DNA of 64,000 nucleotides from an uncultured virus (IMG/VR IMGVR_UViG_3300034279_001265) (IMGVR_UViG_3300034279_001265), one strand, 5' to 3'; positions 3,577-32,742 are shown, counted from the first letter of the stretch. The notes: generated by a model not told the origin, from the sequence alone. A program made the numbers and translations.

Positions 3577-6500
3577 CTATTGATTACGCTTCATTATGTC
3601 AATTCTGTAGTTAGGATCTGCAAAATCGCGGAAATTTTTAAGACCTGTAAGATCCATAAAATCCTTAGCAATCTTAGGGTCACCCTTCTCGTAAACACCG
3701 CTTTTGCGTGAGTAAAACGCGTCTTTCCATATCTCCTGGTAGTATTCACTATCATACATAGGATCAGGTTCCTGACCACCATTCATAAGCATTGCTTGAC
3801 CATAGTAGAACGTATGGCTGCCCAAACGCTGCAAAGCTGTAAATTCACGCACCAGAGGAACTGCAGTAGTAAAGTTCTTGATATACTCTTGAGAACCGCC
3901 GCCTACAGGAAACATGGAGGTTGCTTCACCCTTTACACCCCACAGGATGCGTATCGCGTTACCCTCCAAAAAGCTCAGTTCTTCATCTTCATCGTTCTTT
4001 TTGCGTACATACATTAGTGCCATCATAGACACCATTGTCAGAATGGCCATTACAAGTGCATCACGCGATGCTTGGTCCATCTTGCGAGAAAGCAGTTCAC
4101 CCAGTTGGTTCTGGTTAGTCTTGCTCATATGCTTAGACCCACGAATCCAGTGCTTCATTGCGTAACCTGGACCATAGTTCCTAAAGACAATCCCTACAGC
4201 TCTCCAGTAACCCAAGGCAGCTTCACCAGCTTCCCAGTTGGGACGCAGGTAACCAAAACGGTTCAGCAATTGTGGCACCAGATACTTTCTGAAAAACATC
4301 ACAATTGTACCAATGGGAGACTCCTCAAGCTTTGTCTGGTCAGCTTTGGCGTAGTTACCCTGGGTGCGGCGCATCTCAGAATAGATAATATTGCGCACAC
4401 GGTTCTCATCCTCCTGGTCATACTCTACATCCTGCCTGCGCTGAAGTTGACCGGTGTTGTCCTTGTAGTAGATTTCATGCACAGGAATCATGACATCCTC
4501 ACCGTTAGCATCTTTCTGATAGATATTGTTGCCCTGAGGATCTTTACCTGCAATAACGCGATAGCGATTGTTGTTCATCACTGCGTACATGACTGTGACA
4601 GCGATCTCTGTGTCACCCTTGTCCTGGAACATGAACCCAAGCTCCTGGATACTGGTCATATGTGAAGCTACTTTGCGTTTTCTTCCACCAGTTACCTCGT
4701 TCATGTATCCTAAGAAGTCTTTCTGTGCAGGGTTAAAGAACCGGTACAGCATGGTAGATTCACTGACATCACCAATTTTGCCAAAGTCTGCAAAGTAGTT
4801 GTGTAAAAATCCATTGTAACCATACACCTTGCTTTTAGCCCACATGTAGTCTTTACGCGAGTATTGGTCAGACGCAAGACCACCTGCAGCAATAAACGCC
4901 TGCACGTTACCAGAAATGTAGTTTTTGGTCTGGTTCACTAGGTCAAATCCAATACGTATAAAGGATGAGTAAGCAAGTGCTGAGTTTAGCTTTTTGTTGA
5001 TAGCACGATCTCCGGCAGCACCGCTTTTGCTTTGTCCATAGAGAAACTTGCGTTTTTCAAAGTTCAGAATGCTGAGCATAGTCTCAAGCTCTTCCACACG
5101 TTCTTGCATGTTTACCTGGATACTGTTGCCTTTTTCATCAGGCTCTGTCATAAACTTCTTTCCTGTACCTACTTCTTTACGTAGATTCGTAAGCTGCATC
5201 TCAAAAAATGCAATGTACTGCTCTACTGCAGGTGCCACTTTTTGCATGGCAATGTTGTGCTGAGCTTCAACAGTGTACTTCATAATAGCCCCAATAGCAT
5301 CACGTGTCTGCAGTTCTTCAGGAAGCTGCTCTGTAAACCTATGACGCAGCTTGCCATTCAGGTCTCCATACATGCCATCTACCTGATCAATCTTACTATG
5401 AGTACGCCAGGTGTTTTCAGCAAACTTCTGATACTCACCATTGAGTGAACCCACAAGACCTTTTCTGGCAATATTCTCTACAGTGCTTGCGGCAAAACCT
5501 GGTACCAAATAACCCATCTTACGACCTTCAACTTTTTGCTGAATGTCAAAGTACATAGTCATTAAGTCGTTGTAGAAACTAAACAGCTCTGGGTCTGCCA
5601 TCAGCTTTCTGTACTTGTTAGAGATGTTTGGAGAACTCTCAAAACCTGGGCGTATCACATACTGACCATCACTGTTCTGCATTACAGTCTTGGGCATAGG
5701 AATGCCTTCAGGACTCTGTAAAAAGTCAGGGTTCTTGGCGCTTTCTTTGATACGCTTGATTTTGTACTTGGGATGCGGCACTGTTTCCATGTATAGTGAA
5801 TACAAGGACTCAACTGGCAAGTTCTCAAAGTTGTATGACTTAGGCAGTGCATTTTGCCTTACATCATAACCGGTAGTGACAGACTGGTATTTGTTATTGT
5901 GATGCAGATTGTACCAGGTGCGAAACTCTTTTTCTTTTTTACTGAAATTAGCTTCTGCTTTACTTAAAGCAGTTTGTGCTGCGTCAATTTCTTTTTTGTC
6001 TGCCTTGGTAGTTGCTGTGGCAAGATCGTTTTCTGCGGTAATCATCTCCCGCTGCGCGGCGTAAAGGATCTTAAGTTTTTCATCAAAAGTGTCCAGGTAT
6101 CCTTGTGCAAGACGCTTCTCAGAAATCTTTTTAATCTCGTTGGATATCTGCACAAGTTGTGCTTTCTGCTGAATATCAAGCATGCCGGTGTTTCTCTTTT
6201 CCAACATGATTTCTTCTATCAAACCTGCAATTTCATCAAGTCTTGTCACATGATCCTCGCTCATAAACTTAGGCTGCAGACGTCCTCCTACTTTGTACTG
6301 ACGCAGAATAGCATTACGTTCATCCATCAGTTCTTTTATCTCAGGATCACTTCCTGCAATGGCAGCTTTTGCGTCATAGAGAAGACCCAGTTGTTCATGC
6401 CAGTTAAGCATCTGCAGATCATTACGCATAGCTACTACAGTTTCACCGTCCTCATTGACTAAATCTACAGATCCTGCTGCACGTTCTGTGACAACTGTCC

Positions 6501-9500
6501 ATATCTGATCCTGGTACATGACATTAGTGCCGCGCGTAAGTTCTTGAGGCAATTCAGGTCTTTTTGTTGGACGCTGTACCTCATTGGTCTTCTGCCACTT
6601 TTCCCAAAGTTCAGGGTGTGAATCTTTATAGCGTACCATAGCACTATCGCGCATACGCTCATAGAAATTGATGTTTACATCATACTCATAGAGCTCATTG
6701 AGCTGATCCATGTACTGTGCATACTCAGGACTCATTTCTTTTGCCTGTTGGCGAAGAGTTCTGATTTCCTGTTCAAGTTCTTGTAAACGCTCAAAGTCGT
6801 ACTCTTCCAAGAGTATTTCATTACCCTTGCCTACATCATAGACAATCGTTTCCATTTCAAAGTAGCGTTTCTGCAACTCTTCACGAATAGATTGAGGCAA
6901 AGCTTTTTGCAAAGAATAAAATGCTTCTGTGTAAGGAAGCTGTGCGTTGTCTATCATCCATTGTAGGTACTGGTCTTTGTACTGTTCATATTCAGCAACT
7001 TTGTCCAAGTAAATCTGTTTTGCAGCAGGACCATCTGACTCCGTAGCTTTCATGTGACTGTCAGCTTTAAGAGCACTCATCTCTTTTCTGAAAACTTGCA
7101 ACTTAAGATTGTATTCTTTAAACGTGTTTTTGTATGCTTCAGTGTAGGGTGCACTCATATACAGCCGCCGCTGTGTTTTTAACTCACCTTTATCCAGATA
7201 AGTATGGTCGCGGTACTCAGAAACTATGTCGTTGAGCTCTTCTACAGTGTAACGCTGCAAGAGCGCATCTCGCTTTTGGTCAAACTTCATTGACGCAAAG
7301 TTGTTCTGAATAGCAAGACGCGCTTGTGCTTCTGCATTTTTCAGCATAATAGTAAACGCACTGACCGCTAATTCTGAGTTGGACGCAGAAGAGATAAACT
7401 GATCCATAAAAGTATTACGAAACAGCCCTGAACCTGAAAAAGTACCCTGACTTCCTACATAGTTTTGAGCATTAGGATCTCTAAGACCATTAATGTATTT
7501 CTCTAAAAACTCATCATTAAACATATATCCGCTTTCCAGCAGTGCTTTTTTTTGCAGGATTTGTCTTTGCAGTTGTTCCATCTGCACCAGTACGCTTGGA
7601 TCTATACCACCTTGTGCAAGCGTTTCAGCCACACGTCTTTTATAAGAACTGTCCATAAACATCAATGCCTTGTGCTTAAAAGCTTTGAGAATTGACGCAG
7701 ATTTGCCTTGTTCTAGGTCTTGTAGTTGTTGCTCCAGCTTTTTGATTTGTAACTCAAGAACTTCTTTGAGTTCTTTGTTTACATTAGTAAAGATTTTTTC
7801 TCCCGGAACTTTTAAAACCTGCACAGCATTGTGTAAAGCAGTATGCCTAAACGCTGCTGCAATGTTGTTCAAAGCGCCATCTATTGCAGTAGTCTTAGAT
7901 TCAAAAAGTTCATTTACTACAAAAGCATTTTCAGTATTCTTACTTGCTTCAGTAATAGTTTCTTTTAAAAGATCAAAAACCAGACTCAGTGAATTACTCA
8001 TCTGGTAGATTTTTAGAATCTCTTGTCCTTCTTTGCTTATTGCGAGATCAGGAGACAGTACAAACTTATCCATCAAGTTATCTGCAAGGTTGCTAAGTCT
8101 TGTGACATCGCGCTCAACTGTATCCAAAAGGTTTGAGAAATTATACGCAAAAGATAGCTCACTGTCGTCTGTGACCTTGCTTACAATATCCTGGTAAGTG
8201 CGCAGTGTGCTGCGGCGTGTTTCAAGTGCTGCCAACAGTACATTGTCGTTGCCTTCTCTTTTGAGTTTTTCAATCTGTATTAAAGTGTCGTTAAGTTCTG
8301 TATTGATAGCTCCCTGTATCTTAGTTTTGAGAGCTGTGTTTTGTTTTTCAGTAATCTTAAAATCACTGATTAAAGCTTTTCTTTTTGATTCTGCCTGAGC
8401 TTCTTCAGAAATAGGGATCTGCTGATCTACAGTTTTTCTGAAAGAATCAAGTTTTTGATAACCAAAAGTAGGTTCTGTTTTCCAATACCCATTGTTGTTG
8501 GGAACATTGGCTCCTTTTGCATAGTCGTAGTAGTACTTCTCGTCAAAGACATGTATGGCAGCACCTTCAAACTTGCCGTCATCGTCTGTTTCATACATCA
8601 GTGCCACAATGCTTTGATCATTGACCTCTAGGCCATTTTGTATCAGCATGTTTTCATAGACCTTCAATTGCAAAGTCCAAGTGTCATAAGCTGACCGGTT
8701 AGTACCTTTGAATGCTGCTTCTGTACCAGGTTTGTTGTCTACAGTAAAGGTTTTTTCAGCAAGATGAACCAGTGCACCGTCTACGTTCACAGACCTTGTG
8801 CCATCTGGATTTGTTTCCATAAGGCGCTTAACTTTCTTGGTCTTAAAGTCAAACACGTTTACACGTCCTTGAGAGTCAATTAAGAGCAAGTCAAGACGAC
8901 CCACTACCATGCTGCCTGTCTTTGTGGTACCTGTAATAGTAACCTCTGGCAGAATCATGAAGCCTTTGTCATTAAAGACTGTGATATGCATAGCAAGACC
9001 CCGCGCCATTTCAAACATGGCTTGTTCAGTGAGGTTGTCAATATTGAAAGGATACTTTTCTTTGTAGTTTTTTAACGCGTTGTCAAAAAACTCTTGTGTA
9101 ATTACATCATAAATGGCAACACCAGACGTAAGACTTTCTACCTGTGCAAGCTCTAAAGCTTCATGCATAAACGTACCAAACAGTTTGAACGCTTCATACT
9201 TAGAAGGATCTCCCTTAAAGTCAGAAGCACCAATAAAGTTTGAAACACTGACCGTCTTTTTGGGAGGCATGCCGTTTTTGACAAGTTGAATATTCTCACG
9301 CAAAAACTCCTGTTGCCGCATGTTCATTTCCATAAGCTTGTCAAGCGTGACTCTTTGCAAAGGTTTAGCACTAAACCTAGCACGCTGAAGCATTGTCATT
9401 TGAGCTATCGCACGCTCCAGTTTAAACTCATCTGAACTTTTGCTGATCTGCTCATCTTTTTCTTCAGCTTTTAGACTAGCCAAAAGCCTTTGTGCGTCAT

Positions 9501-9615
9501 AAACATCAGGTGTCTCATTGTTGTTTAGGGTGTAAGCCGTCATGGCGTTACCTTCACCTAAAGCATTAACAAGACGCTTCCACTCAGGACTGTCGGGGTA
9601 AGGGCATGTGTTCAT
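3577..9615 (-). CDS. Giant virion/ejection protein (2012 aa) with N-terminal PD-(D/E)XK nuclease-like domain
   Basis: GTFMH...E...GRLDLLLID...FDFKTK...QLKVY RecB/Cas4-like motif series; long helical body; hydrophobic helix ALVMAILTMVSMMALMYV near the C-terminus; adjacent to the vRNAP gene. Confidence 0.75.
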   Translation of the reverse strand: MNTCPYPDSPEWKRLVNALGEGNAMTAYTLNNNETPDVYDAQRLLASLKAEEKDEQISKSSDEFKLERAIAQMTMLQRARFSAKPLQRVTLDKLMEMNMRQQEFLRENIQLVKNGMPPKKTVSVSNFIGASDFKGDPSKYEAFKLFGTFMHEALELAQVESLTSGVAIYDVITQEFFDNALKNYKEKYPFNIDNLTEQAMFEMARGLAMHITVFNDKGFMILPEVTITGTTKTGSMVVGRLDLLLIDSQGRVNVFDFKTKKVKRLMETNPDGTRSVNVDGALVHLAEKTFTVDNKPGTEAAFKGTNRSAYDTWTLQLKVYENMLIQNGLEVNDQSIVALMYETDDDGKFEGAAIHVFDEKYYYDYAKGANVPNNNGYWKTEPTFGYQKLDSFRKTVDQQIPISEEAQAESKRKALISDFKITEKQNTALKTKIQGAINTELNDTLIQIEKLKREGNDNVLLAALETRRSTLRTYQDIVSKVTDDSELSFAYNFSNLLDTVERDVTRLSNLADNLMDKFVLSPDLAISKEGQEILKIYQMSNSLSLVFDLLKETITEASKNTENAFVVNELFESKTTAIDGALNNIAAAFRHTALHNAVQVLKVPGEKIFTNVNKELKEVLELQIKKLEQQLQDLEQGKSASILKAFKHKALMFMDSSYKRRVAETLAQGGIDPSVLVQMEQLQRQILQKKALLESGYMFNDEFLEKYINGLRDPNAQNYVGSQGTFSGSGLFRNTFMDQFISSASNSELAVSAFTIMLKNAEAQARLAIQNNFASMKFDQKRDALLQRYTVEELNDIVSEYRDHTYLDKGELKTQRRLYMSAPYTEAYKNTFKEYNLKLQVFRKEMSALKADSHMKATESDGPAAKQIYLDKVAEYEQYKDQYLQWMIDNAQLPYTEAFYSLQKALPQSIREELQKRYFEMETIVYDVGKGNEILLEEYDFERLQELEQEIRTLRQQAKEMSPEYAQYMDQLNELYEYDVNINFYERMRDSAMVRYKDSHPELWEKWQKTNEVQRPTKRPELPQELTRGTNVMYQDQIWTVVTERAAGSVDLVNEDGETVVAMRNDLQMLNWHEQLGLLYDAKAAIAGSDPEIKELMDERNAILRQYKVGGRLQPKFMSEDHVTRLDEIAGLIEEIMLEKRNTGMLDIQQKAQLVQISNEIKKISEKRLAQGYLDTFDEKLKILYAAQREMITAENDLATATTKADKKEIDAAQTALSKAEANFSKKEKEFRTWYNLHHNNKYQSVTTGYDVRQNALPKSYNFENLPVESLYSLYMETVPHPKYKIKRIKESAKNPDFLQSPEGIPMPKTVMQNSDGQYVIRPGFESSPNISNKYRKLMADPELFSFYNDLMTMYFDIQQKVEGRKMGYLVPGFAASTVENIARKGLVGSLNGEYQKFAENTWRTHSKIDQVDGMYGDLNGKLRHRFTEQLPEELQTRDAIGAIMKYTVEAQHNIAMQKVAPAVEQYIAFFEMQLTNLRKEVGTGKKFMTEPDEKGNSIQVNMQERVEELETMLSILNFEKRKFLYGQSKSGAAGDRAINKKLNSALAYSSFIRIGFDLVNQTKNYISGNVQAFIAAGGLASDQYSRKDYMWAKSKVYGYNGFLHNYFADFGKIGDVSESTMLYRFFNPAQKDFLGYMNEVTGGRKRKVASHMTSIQELGFMFQDKGDTEIAVTVMYAVMNNNRYRVIAGKDPQGNNIYQKDANGEDVMIPVHEIYYKDNTGQLQRRQDVEYDQEDENRVRNIIYSEMRRTQGNYAKADQTKLEESPIGTIVMFFRKYLVPQLLNRFGYLRPNWEAGEAALGYWRAVGIVFRNYGPGYAMKHWIRGSKHMSKTNQNQLGELLSRKMDQASRDALVMAILTMVSMMALMYVRKKNDEDEELSFLEGNAIRILWGVKGEATSMFPVGGGSQEYIKNFTTAVPLVREFTALQRLGSHTFYYGQAMLMNGGQEPDPMYDSEYYQEIWKDAFYSRKSGVYEKGDPKIAKDFMDLTGLKNFRDFADPNYRIDIMKRNQ

Positions 9616-9618
9616 AGG

Positions 9619-18600: not shown

Positions 18601-21600
18601 GTTGTACTGATTTAGTCCACTGTCAAAATCTGCAGACTCAGTTTCCTGGTCGTTAGAACCAGTTTCATCATCTTCGTTATACACAGGAGGATTTTCATCT
18701 GTGAGTAGCTCTTCTAATTTTTCTCCTGTAAGCGTGTCTTCTTGTTCTGGTTTGCTTTCTATAAGCGTATTAATCTTTTCAAAGTTTGCTTTGACAAGTT
18801 TCATCAAGGTCTTTTTAGACTCTTGACCATTAGTGTTGTCTACAAAGCTGTCTCCTGTACCGTCATTGCGCTTTACTAAATTAGGACGTACCAAATTATC
18901 ATAGTCAGGATTACCTGTGTTGTTCAAGTCAGGCAGTACTTCATTCCGCATGCGTGCACCCAACATAAAACGATAGTTCTTCCAGGTATTGCCTAAAACT
19001 TCAAGAATCTGATCACGTTTATCAGGATGATTTGCAGTAAGTCTATCAAGGTTGTACACTTTGGCCAAAATAAATTTAGCTATTCTGTCAAAGTTTTGCT
19101 CAAACGTCTGCTTGTTATTATATCTTTTGAGCATGTAGTAAGTCACCATATTGACCAACTCATTTTGCTGTTCTGCAGAATTAAGACTTCCAATTCTGTC
19201 TGTAATTCCTACACCGCCAGGCAAATTTTCAATTTCAACCAGACCTTCAATAATCTCATATGCTGCCTGACCATCATATATGTCAGAAGCCATTACAGAA
19301 GAACTTGCGTAGTAACCGCTGCTTACGCGTGAGTACATTCTGTCAATTTCATTGCTCTTACCTGTAAACATTTCAATCAAACGTTTGAGCAACTGCATCA
19401 GGTCACCAAGAATACCTTTAGGTTTCTTGTTGTCTGTCATATATTTTTGAAAACCATCTGCAAGAATTTCTTCTGCCTGAAGTTGTTTCATGCGCGTCTT
19501 GTCATAGACATAGTTACGCTTGCGTGCAAACTCTTTGAGTGACTCTTCTGTAAACTTAGAAGCATGGACTTTCATCCCAGATACCAAGTCTACAAGACCT
19601 GCGCGATATGCATCTGTCATCAAATATCTAAACACACCGTGAAAGGCCTCATGGTAAACAGTACCTTTCCCTTTAATTTGATTGTTCAGATAGATCACAC
19701 GGTCTTTGAACATCCCCAATACAGTTCCATCTAGGCTTGCAAGATCATTCAGTGTAGATAGATCAAACTCTGAAAGCTTAAACTGAGGGTATGTTTTCTT
19801 TAACCAAGCAACAGCGCTGAGACGTTCAGCATCTGTTTCTGTTTCTACATTGCCTGCCATCATGCTAAACAAAGGCATGCGTGGTATGTCAATAGTGCTA
19901 GGTGCTACAGGTTGTTGCGTAGGATTTTGTACATGAATTTGTACCGGTTTTTCTACTGTAACAGGTACTGGAGCAGGAGCAGGAATACTGCTTAGATTAC
20001 TCACATTATTTTTAGGAGTAATAACAAAACGCCTCATGCCAGAATCAACATGCATGTAGTTGTTCAGGTTAGAACCAAAACGTGCACGTGCGTTAATACC
20101 ATTTTTAGGAGTGTATTTTGGTGAAAAAGAAATATTTGGTACAACAGTACCATCTTTTTCTTCACGAAAAAACAAAAACTCTGGTCTAAATACACCATTG
20201 TAAGTAAAATCCTCTTTAAGATTCTGCATGAACCTGGGATCTTCACTGGTCTGTGTCTCAAGTTTGTTAAGCACCTGATTACGAATTTGCTGTGAAAATC
20301 TTTCTCTTGCTTCTTTAACAGCATTAGCAAGTTCTACAATCAACCCATCAACAGAACCTCTGCGGCTCATGACAGTAATTGTCCTGTAAAACTCGTAAAG
20401 ATCTTCAGCTTTACTAAGATCAAACTTTGCAAGCTCAGGAAACTTTTCCTGAATTTGTTTTACAAGTTTTCCTTCACTAAGCGCTTTTGCAGTAGTAGTG
20501 ATGATTTTTTCATCAAACAAAAAGTTGTAAAGCCTTTTGTTCTCCTCCATAAAACCATAACGATTATCTTTTCTGGCGGTCTTAATCCAAAATTGAAGTT
20601 GACCTTTTTTTGTAGTTGAAAAAGCAACATAAAGTGGTTGATCATTTTTTGTTTTGCTACTAGCAGGCTTAAAAGAATACTCATAAAATTCAAAGTTTTT
20701 TATGTCTGTTTCTCTATTGGTACTGTTAGTCAATACAGTGCTAAGCTCAAAAATAAAGTTGGCAAACTCTTCTACTGGTGACATTGTACCCACATTTTCT
20801 GCAATATTGTAGGTAGGAATCGCACCATCTCTAAACTTAATGACCAGGTTCATTTGATCCTTGTCTGTAGGTTTTAAAAGATTTTCTACAGTCCTAGGAT
20901 TAAGACCAAGTATTTCTTTTGCATACCGTTCCATACTCAATAGAATGGGTTCAGCACCTGACTCTGGTATATACTCTATTTTTTCATCTTTATCCAGCAA
21001 ATCCACCATTTGAAAATCTGCTAACGTTTTGCGAATACGATTATACAAAAATGGTATCTGGCGTTCTTCTTTAACTCCAGTCTTTGTGTTAACAACCGTA
21101 AGCTGCTTGTATAGCGTAGGATCTGACTCAAGTTTTTTACCAAGAGGTGTAAGAGTCTTAAAAGACCGTGTGGACTGCATTTCATACGCGGCAGCAAACT
21201 GCTCTGTAATATCTATAGAGGTTTCACCACTGGTAAATTCTGACATCAAATCATCCTGCACAGACGCTACAAACTCTTGGTACTTCTCTGCGCTGTCTTT
21301 GATGTTTTCTAAATCCTGCTCTGTAAGTTCTACGTTTCCTTTGTTTGTTGCTTTGACACTAAGACGCTTTAACTCTGCAAGATGTCCTGGATTGCTAAAA
21401 TCTACCCGCTCTGTAGTGTTGTCAGAAGATACAAAAGTGTAGTTGTTGCTGCTGTACAGGTAAAACTTTTTGTCTGTTCCTATAAAGCTTCCAACCAATA
21501 CAAAGCTTTGCTCTGATGCTTTAGGGCGCGACACTGTAACTACCTTGCCATTGCTTTCAGAAAGTAGGTAAGCTCTCTGCGCACTGTTCTCAAATGTCTC

Positions 21601-22620
21601 GTGGTTTCTGTTAGCAAGCTTAGCCATTGATGGATCAGACTGTGCCAGGTTTTGAATACGCTGAACGCGCTCATCACCTACATTGCTGATCTTTACAGCA
21701 TGTATCCTAATCCTAGTAAGAGGTTGTGGTTGGTTAAGTAACTTGAATATCTCAGCAGTTTCTTCTTCATTGACTGCTTTTACGCGAAAGCTGCTTAAAA
21801 GTGTGTCTTCAAAAAAGACGTTTTCAACCGTGTTTAACTGATAAGACTCTGCAGGTATTGAGAATTTAACGTTTGCAATCTGCTCCTGAGCAATAGGCTC
21901 CAGTGAACCGTCATTGTTCAGAGTGTATAGTACCTCGTTTTCAGAGACAGCTTCCACCATCTGACCGTTGGTTAGTGTCACCAGCATGTTTTTAAGCTGT
22001 GCCTCTTCTGCAATTTCACTGATAGGGATAAAGTCTGAACGCTTGTCCAAACTAGCAAACATGTCACCTATCAAAGACTCAAGGCCATCTTTGTTGTCCT
22101 GAGGCATCTGACTGTCTATAATTTGCTGACGCAGTGCCGCTGAAAGTTGCTCCAGTAACTGGGTTCTTTCTTCCAGATTGGCAAAACTGTGAGTAGCAAA
22201 GTAGTTTTTGATCAGAGTTACTATGCCATTGGTTCCCACCAGGTCTGACCGGTTGATGACTGTTTTGCCACCAAGTGCATCAATTTTTTTAGTGATGCTG
22301 TCTAGTTTAAGTTCTGCAGGTTTGGATATACCATAAAGTTCTGAAAGTATCTTTACATACCCCTCAGGATTTTCTGTAGCAGCGGTCATATTACTGACTT
22401 GGTCAGCCCTACCTTTTTCATAGTATGAAGAGTCCAAGTCAGCAAGACCCGCGTAGATGTGTGCCAGGTTATGCACAGAAAGCATCTTCTGCTCAGGAGT
22501 CAGCCCGCTTCTCAAAATAAAAGAAGCAGCATTGTCAAAGTTATTATATACAGTAGGCTCCAGTCTTATGAGATCTAGAACAACACCTGTGTACTTGTCA
22601 GTTTGTATTTGACACGCCAT
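9619..22620 (-). CDS. Virion-packaged single-chain RNA polymerase polyprotein (4333 aa) with zincin, P-loop kinase and SLOG-like accessory domains
   Basis: Catalytic AGSDFDVD (DFDVD at 14539-14553) preceded by RIPT, as in crAss-like two-barrel RNAPs; HEAFH zincin motif (19639-19653) with downstream EEILA; GTSGSGKST Walker A (about 11152-11178). Confidence 0.88.
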   Translation of the reverse strand: MACQIQTDKYTGVVLDLIRLEPTVYNNFDNAASFILRSGLTPEQKMLSVHNLAHIYAGLADLDSSYYEKGRADQVSNMTAATENPEGYVKILSELYGISKPAELKLDSITKKIDALGGKTVINRSDLVGTNGIVTLIKNYFATHSFANLEERTQLLEQLSAALRQQIIDSQMPQDNKDGLESLIGDMFASLDKRSDFIPISEIAEEAQLKNMLVTLTNGQMVEAVSENEVLYTLNNDGSLEPIAQEQIANVKFSIPAESYQLNTVENVFFEDTLLSSFRVKAVNEEETAEIFKLLNQPQPLTRIRIHAVKISNVGDERVQRIQNLAQSDPSMAKLANRNHETFENSAQRAYLLSESNGKVVTVSRPKASEQSFVLVGSFIGTDKKFYLYSSNNYTFVSSDNTTERVDFSNPGHLAELKRLSVKATNKGNVELTEQDLENIKDSAEKYQEFVASVQDDLMSEFTSGETSIDITEQFAAAYEMQSTRSFKTLTPLGKKLESDPTLYKQLTVVNTKTGVKEERQIPFLYNRIRKTLADFQMVDLLDKDEKIEYIPESGAEPILLSMERYAKEILGLNPRTVENLLKPTDKDQMNLVIKFRDGAIPTYNIAENVGTMSPVEEFANFIFELSTVLTNSTNRETDIKNFEFYEYSFKPASSKTKNDQPLYVAFSTTKKGQLQFWIKTARKDNRYGFMEENKRLYNFLFDEKIITTTAKALSEGKLVKQIQEKFPELAKFDLSKAEDLYEFYRTITVMSRRGSVDGLIVELANAVKEARERFSQQIRNQVLNKLETQTSEDPRFMQNLKEDFTYNGVFRPEFLFFREEKDGTVVPNISFSPKYTPKNGINARARFGSNLNNYMHVDSGMRRFVITPKNNVSNLSSIPAPAPVPVTVEKPVQIHVQNPTQQPVAPSTIDIPRMPLFSMMAGNVETETDAERLSAVAWLKKTYPQFKLSEFDLSTLNDLASLDGTVLGMFKDRVIYLNNQIKGKGTVYHEAFHGVFRYLMTDAYRAGLVDLVSGMKVHASKFTEESLKEFARKRNYVYDKTRMKQLQAEEILADGFQKYMTDNKKPKGILGDLMQLLKRLIEMFTGKSNEIDRMYSRVSSGYYASSSVMASDIYDGQAAYEIIEGLVEIENLPGGVGITDRIGSLNSAEQQNELVNMVTYYMLKRYNNKQTFEQNFDRIAKFILAKVYNLDRLTANHPDKRDQILEVLGNTWKNYRFMLGARMRNEVLPDLNNTGNPDYDNLVRPNLVKRNDGTGDSFVDNTNGQESKKTLMKLVKANFEKINTLIESKPEQEDTLTGEKLEELLTDENPPVYNEDDETGSNDQETESADFDSGLNQYNKLEGVNKEIRRFLALLKYNRVDERLGITLPRLANGNQMFGVLMSVTSDVEVDNIIDHIKVVANTARYDGNNLLADDLDNIYDKLHKFTNMDSSGRPQSNQQLYNMMIDALDTTELDFITTTVYTNKKTDPSGMDMGTETSSYTIKDQVLFQDINLRKTQIITSIKTKHASSAKDEAYLKAAQDLSTLSRTIYESNFILDSDNQGEKLEELTSELHTLMNAVGINVPKSLIRLSLLAIDKTQNNVVHDNTQLSKEVVDHYNSHEQMIAEGIFFEKDFFLSILQIIKEAVNNQNNHDAFARYITKDKNAELTVDRFNVILRRAAAYMVKYDPQGIQSTVKDSENKSRYRFVSYTPALRLAQTLRRKGLEETLREDPYFEEYVNDWFKDNPAMGVLLDPEGNATFKAKQELFLRNFRVAMFGGVNQVFDGKFKPGKSFKNIDSKSMYITHLLSFLNRTSHKQVIKDAEGKDKLVEIQTYLRSFSQLESSQTNFLISALYEQYADNKGMLKTKDGHLKITDTLTNAVRQEYNRIQREYNKRLERKQVFDAGEKHSLILKFNATHQKDDVTKAEVDSTDLRAYNFIGKIPDFFQANAELVTNDTNTGLRDFAFAGTKFEELPEDVMVTLRNQLNTYAQQALQKHLDRLVELQVLKKEKRPLRTATGAVYIQTGTDGTITRYTSEFIAPVLIVDGRKQENVLENKYYKTPKNYGEKLKGSEIKPIEIPKQENMEGFVADAFFNFWANSLTVNDLLDGDSAMNVKDPSDYFKRQKKQLAAGSTPKRGDHKVAYINTIKAFIHETYPMYGPYYNADEILGDERLSENLRDILIADFAKAQSGVKERITDPSTGIERTIKYGDMMREVFDGQSFSTLMHQMDMHDAMGRLSAEAAELMIAKHYRKLTADEISLLERNNIVNNSKKTVTSTRNAYHKQSEVHIDRNDVSVFVIPEEVLVSPERKREYIKKAQDTIHMLYAEVYSLRDAAKEAKIAGLDPAPFMTQIKVNMQEIHKYYKPIPSRKILHDLLNAMEFHQIDHLMDTTASKNATLLPVDIFTESQKLTEGSYINLEMSSVAVDNRYKFLQVETSGVKDTAKFSVQAKALIAADLLNIAEIMRASGRDIAESEQKSMEKVATILRTYQRTLKDVGESNLINLKTILRKDGDFEVGKIFTLIRTSLESQGAPVNTLKLFDLNVDGTPVHSPNLPGIRNMLEYYFFSQYSKHITDEKRSGFKSIHMSSFGYDLMTDMDGNIIRSEDYRRNPARYPNVKTRPLGVSVETNADGTKTYFVEAIVPKPQFRNKEHEEFYMKQLTKMFATRIPTEDKRSMIVLKVVDFIDSANLNGIIVPHFVHLLAGSDFDVDSLYGQTLAHYFNADDNPVLYGDYSAYSSEDAGRYTEFVEYMSKDDDAKMLVKSELAKIEAMGESYKPSDNAKTFVGYTAERLSEDVDTLKNYDAVLAAFEKLGLPVTLENFLANPKYKKVTRPAFQNANLRSMMDILSNEAVFNYLYINERSSVQAFEDIAEEFGRDVKQMGGGYNHLSIDGVVATKNISGVYKSGIGIAANINKFVALASQFGLELNSENVIWQFQIAVEKGKTETGDTEYDLTLRKYTNFGTLSEENQRVIASIGNILGMFADGMKKPIPSALGMNEENVGTTLVMIGLGLSPTFAVGFNFLPEVKNAVEAVQATKYAISSSDVNSSKFLHQEVKNQIAKLVKENPGVLEELKNAGVVSPLSKSYDIALKKENIALSFKAQKLDAAKVNSNTLTSKEIGYDVKAVNNDTNTVENLSEDAQRIVLLSYYASQAQQQFAVQRAGSILNTFKKLNPRFVTFDKLLKNMTDLAKDGENSIFTSESVSKIFEDDQVFKYLFEAMQDLNEQSSKLFLERTSFFAPVKQLFEEVFEDKSTIAKMITSYIALRQYQRLMPGSRTTGVEAIDNLLARDDQNLRDAFKAVYFFTNNLKDEVEQMLQKYPDNKFLQLLVSENGDAAAFTEKGVKITERGLKLVTKANISGSYASDVTDDAYALMIKENLFAKKLFYYELAKTGLMYKSGSFLQLLPTEMMRPFSPYINDFVKALENAKGNRVKLMSAVKSILGNEATEADVYNFFDEVFMLMADAASQEANNNKIRIARQFSFAKDRSFMQSFRFSETATDNERISIASNVLMEFMGQAPKNASKGYTPQNRNAAGEVVSEITLDMSKPALIPEANDDTMFELGKNFGVKRVFGKPGVYKFPLMFKIDSRQESITYLLQGVGEQVEYQNFGESMFRSITGTGASSVEGSIAKYKAIPAVVSTGLMSPIGMSKQEIEKYVAYTTNKAKLPAVAAPAPVATKPATTQPAQVKPGVEELFESNPELANAVYEALGFSKRTNDEIYQRKLSIIFTNEVLRKNQIESTLKDINAENFDFVAFDSRDLKNKQYQVFIDRLLELGYKQDKDGFFTKNGVSAKDLVKYNITPQQKQQAQQLYSQYLDTKQPDVILPIGTSGSGKSTFIKSLPQENLVIIEPDAMRVEFTGDINDKSKDKEIYIEAANRAVQAIKQGKQVVFDTTNITKDKRLPFIEAIKKEIPTANIQYKLMELNPELAKQRIKAQLARSENRAAVSDETIDRHAASYKQMLEDIKSEPTTEYNILGSKQDIEGFKEFVSGEQGAQAPVSVKKENPLITAGVKPTDMSGNAAKDIQMAEESTQYIGFQSGNAAVSSTKKYKEAWGNKANTGNYTETDIVMVSGSGLFRGVTREQIIETLSTKYKSLLNAAIKANASFRVGNQYEKGNLSDQLVAEYLQKNGYTEERLNGYSRWSKATALTSAAQAPQEEMTSMPDATDMLLSMMQATPVEQQTEAVIEPGQFVKFNNETFIVTKINSNSTVQVYNPTLEGPASKKSVSASNLTAIPGSKAVLVDYKGSQYLVTPKNTIISMTTNKAMQWQENNGDRVAVLELASQNRNVTMDMNNLNLTQPVVDYLYNQSSKRLSKESFRQAAAAMIANLRASTPTNQILEKIKCL

Positions 22621-22647
22621 TATAGTTGGGTTAAAAAAGAAATGTGC

Positions 22648-25600
22648 TTATGAAAAGCAACGAGTAATGTCTTGAAGCTTGTTGAGAATAGAAGCTTCTG
22701 TAATAGGAGCAGATGGCACATTTCCTGTCTCTACAAATTTACTAAATTTAGTTGGATCTTGTAGAGCTTGCTCTCTAAATTCTTTGACTTTAGCATGAAG
22801 ACTTTCTAAACTTGAAAGAGTTAAACTTGCAACGTTTCCGGTAGATGGTGAGTCAAACAAGGTGATCTGGTTTGTGACAGGGTTAACCGCCACAGCCACA
22901 GGCTTTTGCTTATAGTTTACAGGTTTACCTGTAATCAATGCTTCTTTATTTGCATCTATCAAACGTTTACCATCAGGAGTTTTATAGTATTCTTCTAATG
23001 TAGTAAAACCAGTCTTCTTCCTTTTGTTATACTGCTCCATGGACTTTTGAAAAATCTCAAGAGCTTTGGTTACTACTGCTGTGTCTGTAGTGCCCATAAG
23101 CTTCTGCACAAAGTCCAGGTCAGCCCTCGTAGTATTCATACTTTCTGCAAGCTGCATCGCCTGTTCAGCGTCAGGGATTTTCTCAGCGTTGACCGTGTTG
23201 TTGCTGCGATCTACTACATCGTATCCCTGCTCTTCTGTACCGGTAGCAGCAAAAGGTGTTTCTTGCTCTTCAACTATTTCTGGTTCTATAATAGGAGTCT
23301 GTTGACTTATTCCCATTCCTAAAAAGGCAGCATTTGCTTCATCTACTGAGTCTATAAAAGTTTCAGAAGTTTGCGAAGATTTTGCTTCTATTGTAGGAGT
23401 TTCCTCAATAACCTCCTCACCATCAGGTCCAATTGTAATTACAGGTGGCAACTCCTCAGCAGGAGTTTGTTCTGCAGGATCTACAGTAGTGCCAGACGTA
23501 ATAGGTGTTTCAGAAGGTGCTACTTCTTTGTCTATTGCGTCTTTGTGAATCTTGTAAACCTTTTCTTCACGCTCAGACAACGCTATACCTTGTAAAAGTT
23601 TCTCTGCGATCAGATACTTAATGACAGGATCCAGCTCACCAGTGGCAATGATCTCGTCATAGTCTTCCTGTGAGATGTCGTCTGTGTATTCTTTAGGTGC
23701 ATACTTGACTCTAATCTCTGCTTCTTTTTTAAGCAAGTTTTGAACAACGCCTTCATATAGCTTAAATGCATAGTCTTCCTGCTCAATACTCATGTCGGGA
23801 TTTGTGATTATCACCAACAAGTTTTTATAGTTCTCAGAGTCAACAAGAGCGCTTCTTAAATCATTAATAATATTTATTGCGTCCTGTTCACCAGGCGCCA
23901 GATCATTAAGAATTTCCGAAGTTCTGTTATCTAAATCATCTTCTAGTTTGCCAATGTAGACAATCAGGTTAAACTTAAATTTACCATCTACCATGCGCTC
24001 CTGCATTTGGCGAAAGTTATCAGGGTTCATAAGCACATCAACACTGCGCATGTAGTCTTTGGTGTCGCGGTCTAAACGGATGTAGTCATATATCATCTGA
24101 AAGCTATCACGCATGACCTCTTCAGAAATATCAGTAGTGTTTCCTGCCTGTTTGTTTTTGATATTCATCAACTGGCGAAACGTTTCTATAACCTCTGGAT
24201 CAGTAGGATTAAATGTCCTTTCTACTGTTTCAATTTCATTACCATTTTCGTCTGTTAGAGTCTGTGTCTTATCAATAGCTTTTCCCACAAAGACATCTGT
24301 AATCTGTTTGCTTTTGAGAGGTTCGTCATCTTTGTTGTATCCTACAATACTTTCTCTAACCTCCCAGTAACTAGCCCACTTTGACAGCAGTTTTTCTTCT
24401 TTGATCTTACTGTCAAGTTGTTCTTTAATTCTGTTTTTTGTTTCAGCATCAAGACCTTCAGCTTTAAGCTGTTCTTTTAACATTACAATTTCTGTGTACA
24501 AAGACTTGCCTTCACCTTCTAACGATGTAGCACTAGTAAGCGCTCGCAAGGCGTAATCTGCACTAGTTCCAATTCCAGGTGCAGACATCAGTTCTTCAGC
24601 AATCTGTTTAGCTCTATTGGCTGACATGTCACCCTTAATAGCGTTGAGGGCAAGAACTTGTATCGCTTCTTCCTGCGCACCACGCATCAATGTTGCAACA
24701 TACTGGCCCCGGCTGCCTGCATCATACTGAGCAGGGTTGACCATTGTGCTCTTGAACTTGGTGCGAAGACCTTCAATAACGTCTGAGTATTTCTTGATAT
24801 CTTTGGCAACAGCTTCTGAGAACTCACTTGCGGAGTTGTACTTTGTGTCTTCTAACTTAACACCAAAAGACTTTTCAAATTCTTCTGCTGTCATTTCCTT
24901 ACCCATGTCTTTGATAGCACGTTGCAACATGCTTACTGAGTTGGTTCTTTGGGCAGACGCTACTGCGGCAAGCAGTGCGTTGTCACGACCATTCTCAAAC
25001 TCATAGCGCAATCCTTTAGCTGCAGCTTCTGACTGCTGTTGAGCAGCATCAGTTTGTGCCACAAAGTTTACGACCTTTTCTTTGAATGTTCCTTCTTTAG
25101 CTTGCTTAAACAGTGCATTCTGTATCTCAAGATCTTTTTTGAATTGTTCTTCTGCACGCTTGTAGGGGTTAAGTTCAGGAGTCTTTGCATACTCGCGGTT
25201 AATAAGTGCGCGATTAGCAGCTTCAAATGAACTAGACGCAAGCGCTGTAGGCATGCGGATAAGTGATCCTGTAAACGCACCCATCAAAAACGTCTTCAGA
25301 CCTTGCTTAGTAAACTGCTCACTGGCTCCTTTGCCAAAAGCGTCAGACAGTGAGGTTTCTAAACCATTAAACTGACCGGCGTAATAGTCACGCCATGCAG
25401 TAGCAGATGTTTCTTGCAGATTCTCTTGTAAACCTTCTGAGACTTCAAACTTAAAAAAGTCCTTAGCAAAAGCTTTAGAGAACTGTAATGCAGCTTCTTT
25501 TTTACCAAACTCTTTGGCAACTTTTCCAAGTACGCCATAACTGCCAAAAAACCCTGACTTGTCAATCAGCGCTTGGCCAGCTTTAGAGTTAATGACCATT

Positions 25601-26982
25601 ACGTTTTCTGCAGCTTCTGTCATAAACTTGTTGGCAGGAATAAACCTGTTAAACAAATTTCCAAACTGAAGTTTGTTGGTAGCAAGAAGCAATCCTAGGT
25701 TGGTGTTATAGTTAGAAGTACTTGCCTGCATGGCAAGACTTCTCATTTCTTCAAACTCTTTAGCTGTAGGTACAGCTCCATCGTTGTCTACCTGATACTG
25801 CTTGACCATTTTGTCCAGTGTATCACCATAAGAGGTAACTGCTTCAAAACTCGCCTCTGTACTGGACATGTTAAGTTCCTGTGCCACACGGCGTAGTCCC
25901 TGCAGTCCTACACCTATCATTTGACCTGTAGATGCTCCTGCTTTAGACGCAGCTGCAAGTTTTTCACCGTAGCGTACACCGGTACCCACCAGCGGTGTTC
26001 CTTTTAGTAAGTTAGTGGCAACTTCTCCCAAGTTTTTTGACTTGGCAATGTTGAAAAAATTATTAGAGTACACAGTGAACGTCTCAGACATTGAGTCACG
26101 TAATGCGCTGCGGCTCATGTTACCAAGTGCTGCTGTTTCATCAATCTTTGCTGCAACTTTTGCAGCTGCAGAAATTTCGTCAGCACTTTTGTTGGCATAA
26201 GAAAATCCTTTGCCTACATCTGCAAGTGCATCTGCAAATCTAAATCCTGATTTTGCTGTCTGTGCAGCAGCTTGTTTTGCACCTAACCGTGCAGCTGTTG
26301 CACCAAAACTTACAGCACCCGCACCACCGGTTGCAGCTGTAATGGCAATATCTGCTGCAATTTCAATACCAAGACCTGCAAAGGTTCCTAAAGCAAAGCC
26401 AGCATTACCAATAAACTCACTCATGGTGCGCTTAGAAAAAATGCTGTCTTCGTTTTCCGGTTGCTCAAACACAAAGTTGCGCTTCATGTCAAGCTGATCT
26501 TTATAGTACTGCGTGGCAAGCGTTTCTTCATCAGGCTTCATGCGGTCCCAGTCCATGTGAACTAGCGCATCTGCCATACGTCCATATCCTTTCCAGTAGT
26601 CTACAAAAGTGTTTCCAAACTTGTAAGCAAAACTGTCAAGGCCTTTACTCAGGGCTGACCCAAATGTTTCGCGATCAGCAAACTTTTGATAATTGGTGCT
26701 GTCAAGTGGATTAAAAAAATCACCCTGAAAATCTTTCTGGTAACGATAAGGATCTACTGACTGATCTGGAGCATATGTAAAAGTAGAAGGTCCTACCGGC
26801 GCATTGAAACGCTCTGTCAAAGACTGCGGACGTGATGCCTGCTGTCTTTCAAAGTTGCTCTGCTGATTAAGTTTTTGAAATGCTACAGAAAACTCATCAG
26901 TCTGAGGTTCTTTGCCCGCAGATTCATTACCTTCAACACCAAGTGTGTTATCGTCCAAAAAGTTAAAAACATTGTCAGCCAT
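22648..26982 (-). CDS. Large virion ejection/cargo protein (1444 aa), possible membrane-channel component
   Basis: Gly/Ala-rich hydrophobic stretch GNAGFALGTFAGLGIEIAADIAITAATGGAGAVSFG; EGLQENLQ motif; coiled-coil body; directly upstream of the vRNAP gene. Confidence 0.7.
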   Translation of the reverse strand: MADNVFNFLDDNTLGVEGNESAGKEPQTDEFSVAFQKLNQQSNFERQQASRPQSLTERFNAPVGPSTFTYAPDQSVDPYRYQKDFQGDFFNPLDSTNYQKFADRETFGSALSKGLDSFAYKFGNTFVDYWKGYGRMADALVHMDWDRMKPDEETLATQYYKDQLDMKRNFVFEQPENEDSIFSKRTMSEFIGNAGFALGTFAGLGIEIAADIAITAATGGAGAVSFGATAARLGAKQAAAQTAKSGFRFADALADVGKGFSYANKSADEISAAAKVAAKIDETAALGNMSRSALRDSMSETFTVYSNNFFNIAKSKNLGEVATNLLKGTPLVGTGVRYGEKLAAASKAGASTGQMIGVGLQGLRRVAQELNMSSTEASFEAVTSYGDTLDKMVKQYQVDNDGAVPTAKEFEEMRSLAMQASTSNYNTNLGLLLATNKLQFGNLFNRFIPANKFMTEAAENVMVINSKAGQALIDKSGFFGSYGVLGKVAKEFGKKEAALQFSKAFAKDFFKFEVSEGLQENLQETSATAWRDYYAGQFNGLETSLSDAFGKGASEQFTKQGLKTFLMGAFTGSLIRMPTALASSSFEAANRALINREYAKTPELNPYKRAEEQFKKDLEIQNALFKQAKEGTFKEKVVNFVAQTDAAQQQSEAAAKGLRYEFENGRDNALLAAVASAQRTNSVSMLQRAIKDMGKEMTAEEFEKSFGVKLEDTKYNSASEFSEAVAKDIKKYSDVIEGLRTKFKSTMVNPAQYDAGSRGQYVATLMRGAQEEAIQVLALNAIKGDMSANRAKQIAEELMSAPGIGTSADYALRALTSATSLEGEGKSLYTEIVMLKEQLKAEGLDAETKNRIKEQLDSKIKEEKLLSKWASYWEVRESIVGYNKDDEPLKSKQITDVFVGKAIDKTQTLTDENGNEIETVERTFNPTDPEVIETFRQLMNIKNKQAGNTTDISEEVMRDSFQMIYDYIRLDRDTKDYMRSVDVLMNPDNFRQMQERMVDGKFKFNLIVYIGKLEDDLDNRTSEILNDLAPGEQDAINIINDLRSALVDSENYKNLLVIITNPDMSIEQEDYAFKLYEGVVQNLLKKEAEIRVKYAPKEYTDDISQEDYDEIIATGELDPVIKYLIAEKLLQGIALSEREEKVYKIHKDAIDKEVAPSETPITSGTTVDPAEQTPAEELPPVITIGPDGEEVIEETPTIEAKSSQTSETFIDSVDEANAAFLGMGISQQTPIIEPEIVEEQETPFAATGTEEQGYDVVDRSNNTVNAEKIPDAEQAMQLAESMNTTRADLDFVQKLMGTTDTAVVTKALEIFQKSMEQYNKRKKTGFTTLEEYYKTPDGKRLIDANKEALITGKPVNYKQKPVAVAVNPVTNQITLFDSPSTGNVASLTLSSLESLHAKVKEFREQALQDPTKFSKFVETGNVPSAPITEASILNKLQDITRCFS

Positions 26983-32600: not shown

Positions 32601-32742
32601 CTTCTATGGGTACTGCACCCATAGTATTTTTTACAGGAGCATTGGTATTACCCTCACCAATATAATGTACTTGCCTGTGTACCAATGAGTAATCTCTTTG
32701 GTCTCCAGTTTTAGGTGACTTTGTTATCCTTATATTTTTCAT
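29656..32742 (-). CDS. Putative cargo protein (1028 aa) with x-x-x-G-G motifs
   Basis: N-terminal NIEVEGGETV...GKRHSNGG...FIFSD module; low-complexity linkers; Gln/Asn/Ala-rich C-terminal helical region. Confidence 0.65.
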   Translation of the reverse strand: MKNIRITKSPKTGDQRDYSLVHRQVHYIGEGNTNAPVKNTMGAVPIEEANIEVEGGETVVGDVNRDGFLEHMTFVGKRHSNGGMPVNIPEGSFIFSDTKKLKIKDKEILKEVFGMGGKAGGYTPAEIAKRYQINQYIQDLKNPDADAITKRSATQMLANNMEKLGMLALVQESMKGFPDGVPAIADSVMAGLQPEGEAEMSDAKYGGVKKLQEGGFNLKYTPQTTIYINNVPFTYQKHEDADFWGTGDIVTFKSEDGRYYKTNSKDLKKRIDSGKPVDLGYKEGRVNRAFVTSSQEGKSYYDSNEETIAGQRFAKGSKFYADGKLYEVEDPFAANVSSARGTYMSSPTTGIFTEVSPGNSYTPAVKVFEIDKNGKRVGTAKNLSNDFISRSVKNNTFDFVSIANSGSQNQAPGADVPGGTTKIEEPKSTSASAVTNTNTQATAPKNTAIPASSAPKTKVAKPAGVSDAAYEAFNSFRTGGFVLNQYQDAGQTGSTTTTAANQPEVQNTPNQRIDPNQEIAMGQYTKDGETFYRFYKGDQKYIKDVNGKIIMSGTRTDTQFSQYGSQNINQLLAKTPNVRYTETNFGSFGNQPRMGNTGIYMSSGNAAARNSGNLSEKEWQDFKDRHGDWVDKEYAGGFEQYKKDLIAGQETGDKAAGWFQDKINEKSMQQFGVPYFADASSANNSPYKRDSKFGQVTYSVPRFFDAPVEQANKETPKEEPKKPVNIAVGEAAPAQPRKQGPWWLQDIVNFTGTLTDRVNRYEPTQGRVELQTPGYTVLDPTRQLAANQEQMARLQEQAMNTTDGNVALASMLGASGQGFANAANVLADTENRNVGIVNQAYMTNAQINNQEAVANETGRQKYVEDMATLNQQMDNAEQQKKWRQIAAFNNGTTNWFRKKQMEQVLFPQVYIDPITGNADFSGQSRDALGPDTYSPAYADMSRQVAMNPIANVDQWNQIYQEARGTMGDQEAKRYATNSVNQMMSAQQRQVMGITPRQQFNQMSAQGLTLPVPLREYGGEMYLPWVELD

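Follow-up and report, generated by a model that had tools for sequence, protein, structure and literature searches.

The stretch of DNA considered here is a window of 64,000 nucleotides from an uncultured virus (IMG/VR record IMGVR_UViG_3300034279_001265), and the subject of the analysis is a run of three giant genes at positions 3577–26982 whose products, referred to as proteins A, B and C, contain cysteine (Cys) only at the termini that face one another. Translation of every open reading frame (ORF) of at least 150 amino acids (aa) places all of them on the minus strand. The block is the structural half of a crAss-like phage, in which genes for a terminase, a portal, a major head protein and tail proteins are followed by very large genes. 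The three giant proteins and the codons of their Cys residues are located as follows.

22648–26982, minus strand: protein A, 1444 aa, first member of the putative chain; its sole Cys is C1442 and it has no N-terminal Cys.
9619–22620, minus strand: protein B, 4333 aa, the virion RNA polymerase protein, in the middle of the putative chain; its only Cys are C3 and C4332.
3577–9615, minus strand: protein C, 2012 aa, last in the putative chain; C4 is its sole Cys, and a C-terminal Cys is absent.
22657–22659, minus strand: codon of A C1442 (TGC), third residue from the end, ...ITRCFS.
22612–22614, minus strand: codon of B C3 (TGT), MACQ.
9625–9627, minus strand: codon of B C4332 (TGC), second residue from the end, ...KIKCL.
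9604–9606, minus strand: codon of C C4 (TGC), MNTCP.

Together, proteins A, B and C possess four Cys in 7,789 residues, each no more than four residues from a terminus that faces the neighboring gene, and the outer termini of the trio have none. This layout was first noticed in a reading of the window made from its letters alone (the sequence-only reading), and scripted translation of the ORFs returned exactly the positions it had given, as well as its zero counts for the outer termini and for the 881-aa and 1028-aa proteins encoded upstream. Cys is also absent from window ORFs of 161, 581, 188, 547 and 414 aa. The remaining 24 window ORFs contain 103 Cys in 12,218 residues (0.843%), a frequency at which 65.7 Cys would be expected in 7,789 residues. 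The probability that four uniformly placed Cys all fall within the 16 junction-facing positions is (16/7789)^4 = 1.8e-11, and the probability of a Cys within four residues of the end at all four facing termini, given the background frequency, is 1.2e-6. Chance as the source of the Cys layout is rejected by these counts.

The conservation of the terminal Cys was evaluated by searching each of the three proteins against a large protein collection and scoring the ends of the homologues by script. The A family consists of 120 listed homologues of 188 found, the C family of all 116, and the B family of the first 89 of 120 listed; the remaining 31 share mainly the kinase domain of B. Among the listed homologues of A, a Cys lies at -2 or -3 from the C-terminus in 118 of 120 and an N-terminal Cys in none (0/120), while 117 of the 120 are without internal Cys and the family as a whole has 3 in 192,782 residues. 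The two proteins without this C-terminal Cys are 1045 and 1207 aa long, against 1,400–2,100 aa for most members, and have C-terminal ends unlike those of the family; the source of one labels it 'partial'. The C family possesses a Cys at positions 2–8 in 112 of 116 proteins, in the context MxxCPN, and a C-terminal Cys in 0 of 116, with the four misses being N-terminally shorter proteins of 1302–1814 aa. Both ends carry Cys in the B family (N-terminal in 82 of 89, C-terminal in 88 of 89), where the seven N-terminal misses comprise four shorter proteins with unrelated starts, a single-ORF form like that at locus L022 described below (P0322), and two further proteins (P0319 and P0321).

Overall, the terminal Cys are retained in 93–99% of homologues, and the frequency of internal Cys is 0.0016% in the A family, 0.023% in the B family and 0.036% in the C family versus 0.84% in the other window ORFs. 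Furthermore, C3 and C4332 of B are invariant columns beside the catalytic aspartates in an alignment of window B with 34 homologues (20–65% identity), and C4 of C is invariant in a 30-sequence alignment containing C and 29 homologues down to 25% identity. The alignments thus indicate that the terminal Cys are conserved at the level of catalytic residues.

The relationship between terminal Cys and breaks between proteins was probed using 79 loci fetched from viral contigs by means of the B alignment, together with the window, with all plus-strand ORFs listed. The resulting table contains unique junctions that adjoin a protein of at least 1,000 aa, and is based on ORFs of at least 100 aa, the first ATG as start, and Cys no more than 10 residues from an end. 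There are 170 such junctions, 97 of which have Cys on both sides, 58 on neither side, 10 on the downstream side only and 5 on the upstream side only. The 58 junctions without Cys on either side are those from a cargo gene to A, from C to the next gene, and similar. Three of the 15 mixed junctions are start-codon miscalls (L051, L053 and L054) for which the second ATG is the real start (MSCTVK), and four belong to L055 and L069, in which an extra 162–165-aa ORF lies between B and C, both of which keep their Cys. The other eight are of the type found in the cultured phage crAss001, with the polymerase gene after an unrelated small gene and the partner encoded elsewhere. The inserted ORF (L055:13723–14220 and L069:8776–9264, both plus strand) has no Cys at either end and is found in these two related loci. 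Where both chain ends are visible, 14 loci have three-protein, 4 have four-protein and 2 have two-protein chains; chain building extends only where Cys is present, which makes these numbers descriptive, and the unbiased count is that of the 170 junctions.

For mapping the break positions, three profiles were used: one from 28 of the 120 A homologues listed, one from the B alignment of 35 rows, and one from 29 of the 116 homologues of C. In L009–L013, L015, L017, L021 and L034, the last 149–744 residues of B ('...IKCL') are encoded by a gene of their own, whose product has both an N- and a C-terminal Cys, and a further protein with Cys at both its ends is found between B and C in L045, L046 and L059. 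The splits near the end of B occur at no fewer than three distinct profile positions (about 3705–3721, 3905 and 3930) and create new ends such as '...DPTDENNC' and 'MKCRTD...'; the corresponding profile positions are free of Cys in window B and in other unsplit relatives. At a chain junction in L046, after a 345-aa link protein, there is also a 211-codon open frame (L046:12358–12993, plus strand; 197 aa from its first ATG) around which the flanking Cys are kept. By eye this frame resembles a GIY-YIG homing endonuclease, which is a candidate label for it.

The converse arrangement is observed where a single giant ORF directly follows a Cys-free cargo gene (L022, L047, L050, L055, L068 and L073). 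An N-terminal Cys is found in 0 of these 6 forms, and 5 of the 6 contain exactly one Cys, at the C-terminal end, in 3,785–4,532 residues. A-family sequence was detected in the first part of single-ORF forms in L050 (by profile) and P0346 (by BLAST). In all related loci in which it can be seen, the ORF immediately preceding A, or preceding the single giant ORF, contains 0 Cys. A further single-ORF form, P0336 (7,100 aa), has 0 Cys, is preceded by three Cys-free proteins, and is the last gene before opposite-strand genes; upstream, a 1,721-aa tail protein with 100 Cys is encoded. The 1,721-aa tail-region protein recorded as L088 (G002 contig 68799–73964) has 100 Cys (5.8%). A few genes downstream of it come four Cys-free proteins in a row, among them a giant of roughly 6,800–7,100 aa, so that an extreme contrast in Cys content is found in one structural block. 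In a FastTree phylogeny of the polymerase core (65 of the 79 loci, those with unique segments; long branches), the split state changes at least five times and the state of the protein's own N-terminal Cys at least five times. When the loci are coded on structure only, 36 have a giant upstream neighbor and an N-terminal Cys, 6 have neither, and 5 are of the crAss001 type. The sequence-only reading had suggested testing whether terminal Cys co-occur at junctions and vanish where genes are fused, and both expectations were borne out: terminal Cys co-occur on both sides of every examined junction between consecutive chain proteins, the Cys are gone where one ORF spans the junction, and new pairs are found where a gene is split.

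The same layout is found in cultured and reference phages. In phi14:2, the sole Cys of gp67 (1797 aa) is its last residue, the Cys of the crystallized polymerase gp66 (2180 aa) are limited to C3 and one at -2, and gp65 (1421 aa) contains C3 alone; all three are annotated in their records as present in virions by mass spectrometry (MS). In crAss001, gp47 and gp49 possess one Cys each, at -3 and as C5, respectively, and gp50 possesses C5, another at -9 and, in addition, C1334. In p-crAssphage, a Cys is found at -2 of gp45 and as C3 in gp44, which is without a C-terminal Cys; both proteins have some internal Cys. The phi14:2 gp67/gp66/gp65 and crAss001 gp47/gp50/gp49 sets are thus similar to the window in gene module, in possessing a polymerase with a DFDxD motif, and in terminal-Cys layout, and differ from it in the points at which the proteins are broken. 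The HExxH region is found at the C-terminal end of gp47 ('...ALRCNS') in crAss001 and inside B in the window, and the crAss001 break lies about 1,150 profile positions further along than that of the window. In some relatives, the three proteins are reported in the phi14:2 preprint to be fused as one polyprotein (10.1101/2020.03.07.982082).

The sequence-only reading assumed that the chain follows gene order, an assumption that is not upheld by crAss001, where the gp47 gene lies at a great distance from those of gp50 and gp49 and on the other strand, and the Cys rule still holds. A gp47-like protein was also found in 3 of 5 further crAss001-type records, with Cys at -4, -4 and -3. The comparison of loci consequently indicates that Cys pairs track breaks between proteins, not gene adjacency.

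The domains identified in proteins B and C and the two Cys-free genes that precede the trio are located as follows.

19639–19653, minus strand: HEAFH motif of B (residues 990–994), from the sequence.
14539–14559, minus strand: GSDFDVD in B (residues 2688–2694), the DFDxD catalytic motif of a crAss-type RNA polymerase, from the sequence and alignment.
10783–11193, minus strand: kinase-like P-loop domain of B (residues 3810–3946), a match to Pfam AAA_33 with an expectation value (E) of 1.3e-15.
8827–9192, minus strand: PD-(D/E)XK nuclease domain of C (residues 142–263), from a domain match.
26989–29634, minus strand: 881-aa protein with 0 Cys, upstream of the chain, from translation.
29656–32742, minus strand: 1028-aa protein with 0 Cys, upstream of the chain, from translation.

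In the 35-sequence alignment, H990, E991, F993 and H994 of the HEAFH motif are invariant, as are the catalytic residues D2690, D2692 and D2694. The HEAFH motif is read here as a zincin-like HExxH motif on the basis of Drobysheva's text, and not of a family match. The role assigned to the DFDxD motif is that described for phi14:2 gp66 in the preprint (10.1101/2020.03.07.982082). The P-loop domain also matches a PHROG polynucleotide kinase as well as PDB 4jst and related chains (E 2.5e-5), and a phmmer search of PDB sequences with A, B and C matched the B kinase domain only. Stretches 52–94% identical to the kinase-like stretch of B (residues 3802–3970; 10711–11217, minus strand) are found in 31 giant proteins (P0326–P0356) that otherwise scarcely match B. 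The stretch lies at widely differing positions in each of these proteins, as though it were a mobile cassette among giant phage proteins.

Several observations identify the module. Genes for the terminase, portal and major head protein lie upstream of A, B and C on the same strand, in the gene order of phi14:2. The family profiles match crAss001 gp50 (E 4e-16), gp47 (E 6e-19) and gp49 (E 5e-7) as well as phi14:2 gp66 (E 2e-7) and gp65 (E 3.5e-7); phi14:2 gp67 was not matched by the window family profiles. A tblastn search with the catalytic region of B matched 71 crassvirus records, and 336 relatives were confirmed in viral contigs by means of the DFDxD motif. Presence in the virion is known by MS for the phi14:2 and crAss001 modules (10.1101/2020.03.07.982082; PMC10172136). 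The best explanation of these similarities is that A, B and C represent the crassvirus virion RNA polymerase module, which would be carried inside the particle and passed into the host cell. By their position, the proteins of 881 and 1028 aa are cargo-like, and they stand outside the Cys chain.

Other features of the block and of its relatives were noted in passing. A 975-aa protein in the tail/cargo block (35097–38024, minus strand) combines LysM, a YkuD L,D-transpeptidase domain and DUF5872, and the polymerase homologue P0318 has a YkuD domain fused at its end. A 748-aa protein (32849–35095, minus strand) contains just two Cys, arranged as CxxC (C92 and C95), carries DUF5754 and weakly matches 'minor head protein and DNA pilot'. 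In its tblastn-aligned stretch, locus L001 is a 100% match to the window; it lies on a viral contig of 121,380 bases, apparently a more complete copy of the phage than the 68-kilobase (kb) record, estimated to be 54% complete, that contains the window.

A disulfide of the kind suggested by this layout has been observed in one other phage. The sequence-only reading stated that no description of such a system was known, a statement that is corrected by the cryogenic electron microscopy (cryo-EM) structure of cyanopodophage A4, in which the C-terminal helix of gp27 docks in gp26 with a disulfide between Cys1715 and Cys5 (PMC12002296, PNAS 2025). In the genome of this phage, also named Anabaena phage A-4L, gp27 (1717 aa) has Cys 1715 as its sole Cys and gp26 (1114 aa) has Cys 5 as its sole Cys. 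Similar to the window, these are consecutive internal or ejection proteins with a single facing Cys each, at positions -3/5 in A4 compared with -3/3 and -2/4 in the window. Furthermore, the residues near C1442 of A show a hydrophobic repeat at -10, -9, -6, -3 and +1 (I, L, L, I and F), which fits an amphipathic C-terminal helix of the type described for A4 gp27. In contrast to the window, A4 belongs to the Saffermanviridae, infects another host, and joins just two proteins by one link, with no RNA polymerase; its bond is treated by the authors as a local stabilizer and not as a rule (PMC12002296), whereas the window has two potential links in a chain that includes the polymerase. No match to A-4L gp24–gp31 was obtained with the A, B and C profiles at E of 0.01 or below. 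By analogy, the crassvirus mechanism would be a multi-link version, polymerase included, of a bond seen once in another podophage.

Other systems share parts of the pattern. Counts of 0 Cys were obtained for N4 gp50, gp51 and gp52, and the N4 virion RNA polymerase has 0 in 3,500 aa, in agreement with what the sequence-only reading had stated of that protein. The polymerase of N4 is of the T7-like type, whereas that of crassviruses is of the two-barrel type. In T7, gp15 and gp16 have 0 Cys and gp14 has one, at position 2 (L090:1729–2319, plus strand), and neither N4 nor T7 has a Cys chain. The Schitoviridae are similar to the window in that a giant virion RNA polymerase and its partners are nearly Cys-free and differ from it in having no terminal Cys, and hence no chain is possible. 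A-B protein toxins possess an interchain disulfide that tethers the two parts outside the cell and is reduced in the cytoplasm after translocation. The likeness to these toxins would be an analogy of principle without homology, as they have one link made in an oxidizing compartment versus the megadalton head-to-tail series proposed here. Suppression of Cys in ejection operons is known from DEV gp71–gp73 and the Schitoviridae, with a frequency of 0.00075% for gp71 homologues, and the DEV paper cites the idea that periplasmic disulfide formation is thereby avoided (PMC11445570).

The crassvirus literature offers some context for these comparisons. Bayfield et al. (2023) list gp45, gp46, gp47, gp49 and gp50 as cargo and propose N-to-C ejection with partial unfolding; they describe the order of exit as 'likely to be controlled' by packing and interactions (PMC10172136). 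LC-MS/MS was performed in that study on both reduced and untreated crAss001 virions. The same text reports disulfides, from cryo-EM, in the tail and portal-vertex proteins of crAss001, indicating that disulfides do form in crassvirus virions. It contains 0 mentions of 'cystein' in its accessible part, and its 7 mentions of 'disulfide' all concern tail and portal-vertex proteins (PMC10172136). Likewise, the accessible text of the phi14:2 preprint has 0 mentions of 'cys' or 'disulf' (10.1101/2020.03.07.982082). No description of terminal cysteines in crassvirus cargo was found in full-text searches of non-subscription literature.

The explanation that best accommodates the comparative results and the A4 analogy is that head-to-tail disulfides between proteins A, B and C replace the peptide bonds of a polyprotein, and it is probable that such heterotypic bonds exist. 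Each break would be bridged by a disulfide between a Cys located 1–9 residues from the upstream C-terminus and a Cys located 2–8 residues from the next N-terminus; in the window, C1442 of A would pair with C3 of B, and C4332 of B with C4 of C. The product would be a single chain of 7,789 residues, covalent and essentially linear, with the topology of the unbroken polyprotein that some relatives encode, and the purge of internal Cys would preclude a wrong bond, loop or branch. The bonds would presumably form in or after assembly. The chain may then hold the stoichiometry of the proteins and their order of exit through the tail, and the stubs of 1–9 residues beyond the Cys may be thin enough for a junction to pass a narrow channel. 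Following entry, the reducing cytoplasm of the host would separate the proteins and free the enzymes.

The full model, in which ordered threading through the tail is followed by reductive release in the host, is put forward only tentatively. It is a similarly speculative suggestion that a redox-cleavable polyprotein is the form in which internal proteins are delivered by crassviruses and by one or more unrelated podophages. Separately synthesized proteins would be joined by disulfides to a polymer of up to about 1 MDa and pulled N-to-C in a fixed order, with junction stubs short enough for the channel, and reduction in the host would return working enzymes, including the early-gene RNA polymerase. 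The interpretation offered in the sequence-only reading is therefore supported in part: its comparative tests came out as predicted, whereas gene order as the determinant and the absence of any prior description did not stand. If disulfide and peptide bonds are indeed interchangeable in this module, gene fission and fusion within it would be neutral.

The terminal Cys could also be bonded for another purpose or in another manner. Disulfides may staple a folded cargo complex (a pre-ejectosome) in the capsid, fixing stoichiometry or packing with no ordered thread, an explanation that shares the bond with the polyprotein-like chain, differs in purpose only, and is possible if somewhat unlikely. 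It is favored by A4, where the bonded gp27–gp26 pair lies within a folded pentameric ring round the portal axis and the bond is said to be one that 'further stabilises' the docked helix (PMC12002296), and by the residues ahead of the C-terminal Cys, which look like an amphipathic helix. However, Cys that are always 1–9 residues from the ends, combined with internal Cys purged to 0.002–0.04%, are more than a staple needs, and the substitution of a plain peptide bond for the link in relatives fits linear continuity. Instead of forming a disulfide, the facing Cys might share a metal ion or cluster (e.g., Zn or Fe-S), in a site that may span several copies, or engage in some other thiol chemistry at the junction. 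The pairing evidence does not specify the chemistry, and a His is found two residues before the Cys in some C-terminal motifs (DIHACS, DIHSCF), but one Cys per side is too few for the usual metal site, no ligands conserved throughout the order are found among the flanking residues, and the sole solved example of the Cys layout, that of A4, is a disulfide. Consequently, metal binding is considered improbable.

Bonding of each terminal Cys to the same Cys in a second copy (A-A or C-C dimers, or polymers of B), or to another virion protein, is considered very improbable. Partners are indistinguishable from sequence alone, crAss001 gp57 forms homodimer disulfides (PMC10172136), and p-crAssphage gp47 (857 aa; L081:5189–7762, plus strand) has its sole Cys at -2 (…KQSCR) with no visible partner, the next protein, gp46, having 0 Cys. 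Such bonding leaves unaccounted for the outer termini that never carry Cys (A 0/120 listed, C 0/116), the Cys at both new ends of each split, and the loss of the polymerase N-terminal Cys exactly where the upstream partner is absent (0/6), and the bond seen in A4 is heterotypic. The remaining alternative, that the layout is a by-product, is close to negligible; here, Cys would be purged from ejected proteins and tolerated in unstructured ends, or the codons would be an intergenic DNA or RNA signal. The known suppression of Cys in Schitoviridae ejection proteins (PMC11445570) is consistent with this idea, as are the Cys-free N4 gp50–gp52 and T7 gp15 and gp16 and the spacing of only 18 nucleotides between the B/C junction Cys codons of the window. 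Tolerance, however, predicts Cys at about 3% of termini versus the 93–99% seen and would leave the Cys-free outer termini unexplained. Across unique contexts, TGT and TGC both occur (TGT 81 and TGC 29 at C-termini, TGT 106 and TGC 14 at N-termini), which indicates selection on the residue. A DNA or RNA signal or translational coupling is ruled out by this use of both codons together with the crAss001 partner genes, which are distant and on opposite strands.

Several points weigh against the proposal that disulfides link A, B and C into a polyprotein-like chain. The bond has been seen in no crassvirus by experiment or structure, and no structure of crassvirus cargo termini was found. Assembly takes place in the reducing cytoplasm, so oxidation must be later or catalyzed; searches for a thiol oxidase or thioredoxin gave no match in the 68-kb record, a 54%-complete fragment, with an Erv1/Alr control that matched 0 of 14 control genomes. 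Homology to A was undetected by profile search in the N-terminal part of 5 of the 6 single-ORF forms, and these forms may lack A rather than be fused to it. The phylogeny yields only 4 independent pairs, in which the Cys state is concordant in 3–4 and never reversed (p 0.125–0.25, underpowered). The one C-terminal miss in the B family, P0318, has Cys at -37 and -32 and none within 10 residues of its end, no gp47-like match was found in 2 of the 5 further crAss001-type records (one 59% and one 99% complete), and the lone Cys of p-crAssphage gp47 described above belongs with these exceptions. In single-sequence AlphaFold2 models, residues 4140–4333 of B have a mean predicted local distance difference test (pLDDT) score of 57, with the last 14 residues below 50, and residues 1–400 of C have a mean of 35; these scores are too low for the models to bear on the proposal either way.

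Among the phages of the human gut, crassviruses are the most abundant. The protein that they package and inject amounts to about 5 MDa and includes a giant RNA polymerase, which is needed at once in the host. If the proposal is correct, a covalent, reducible chain would provide a mechanism for 1:1:1 stoichiometry, a fixed order of ejection, and activation after entry. Such a chain would also account for the extreme purge of internal Cys from these proteins and for the free fission and fusion of their genes.

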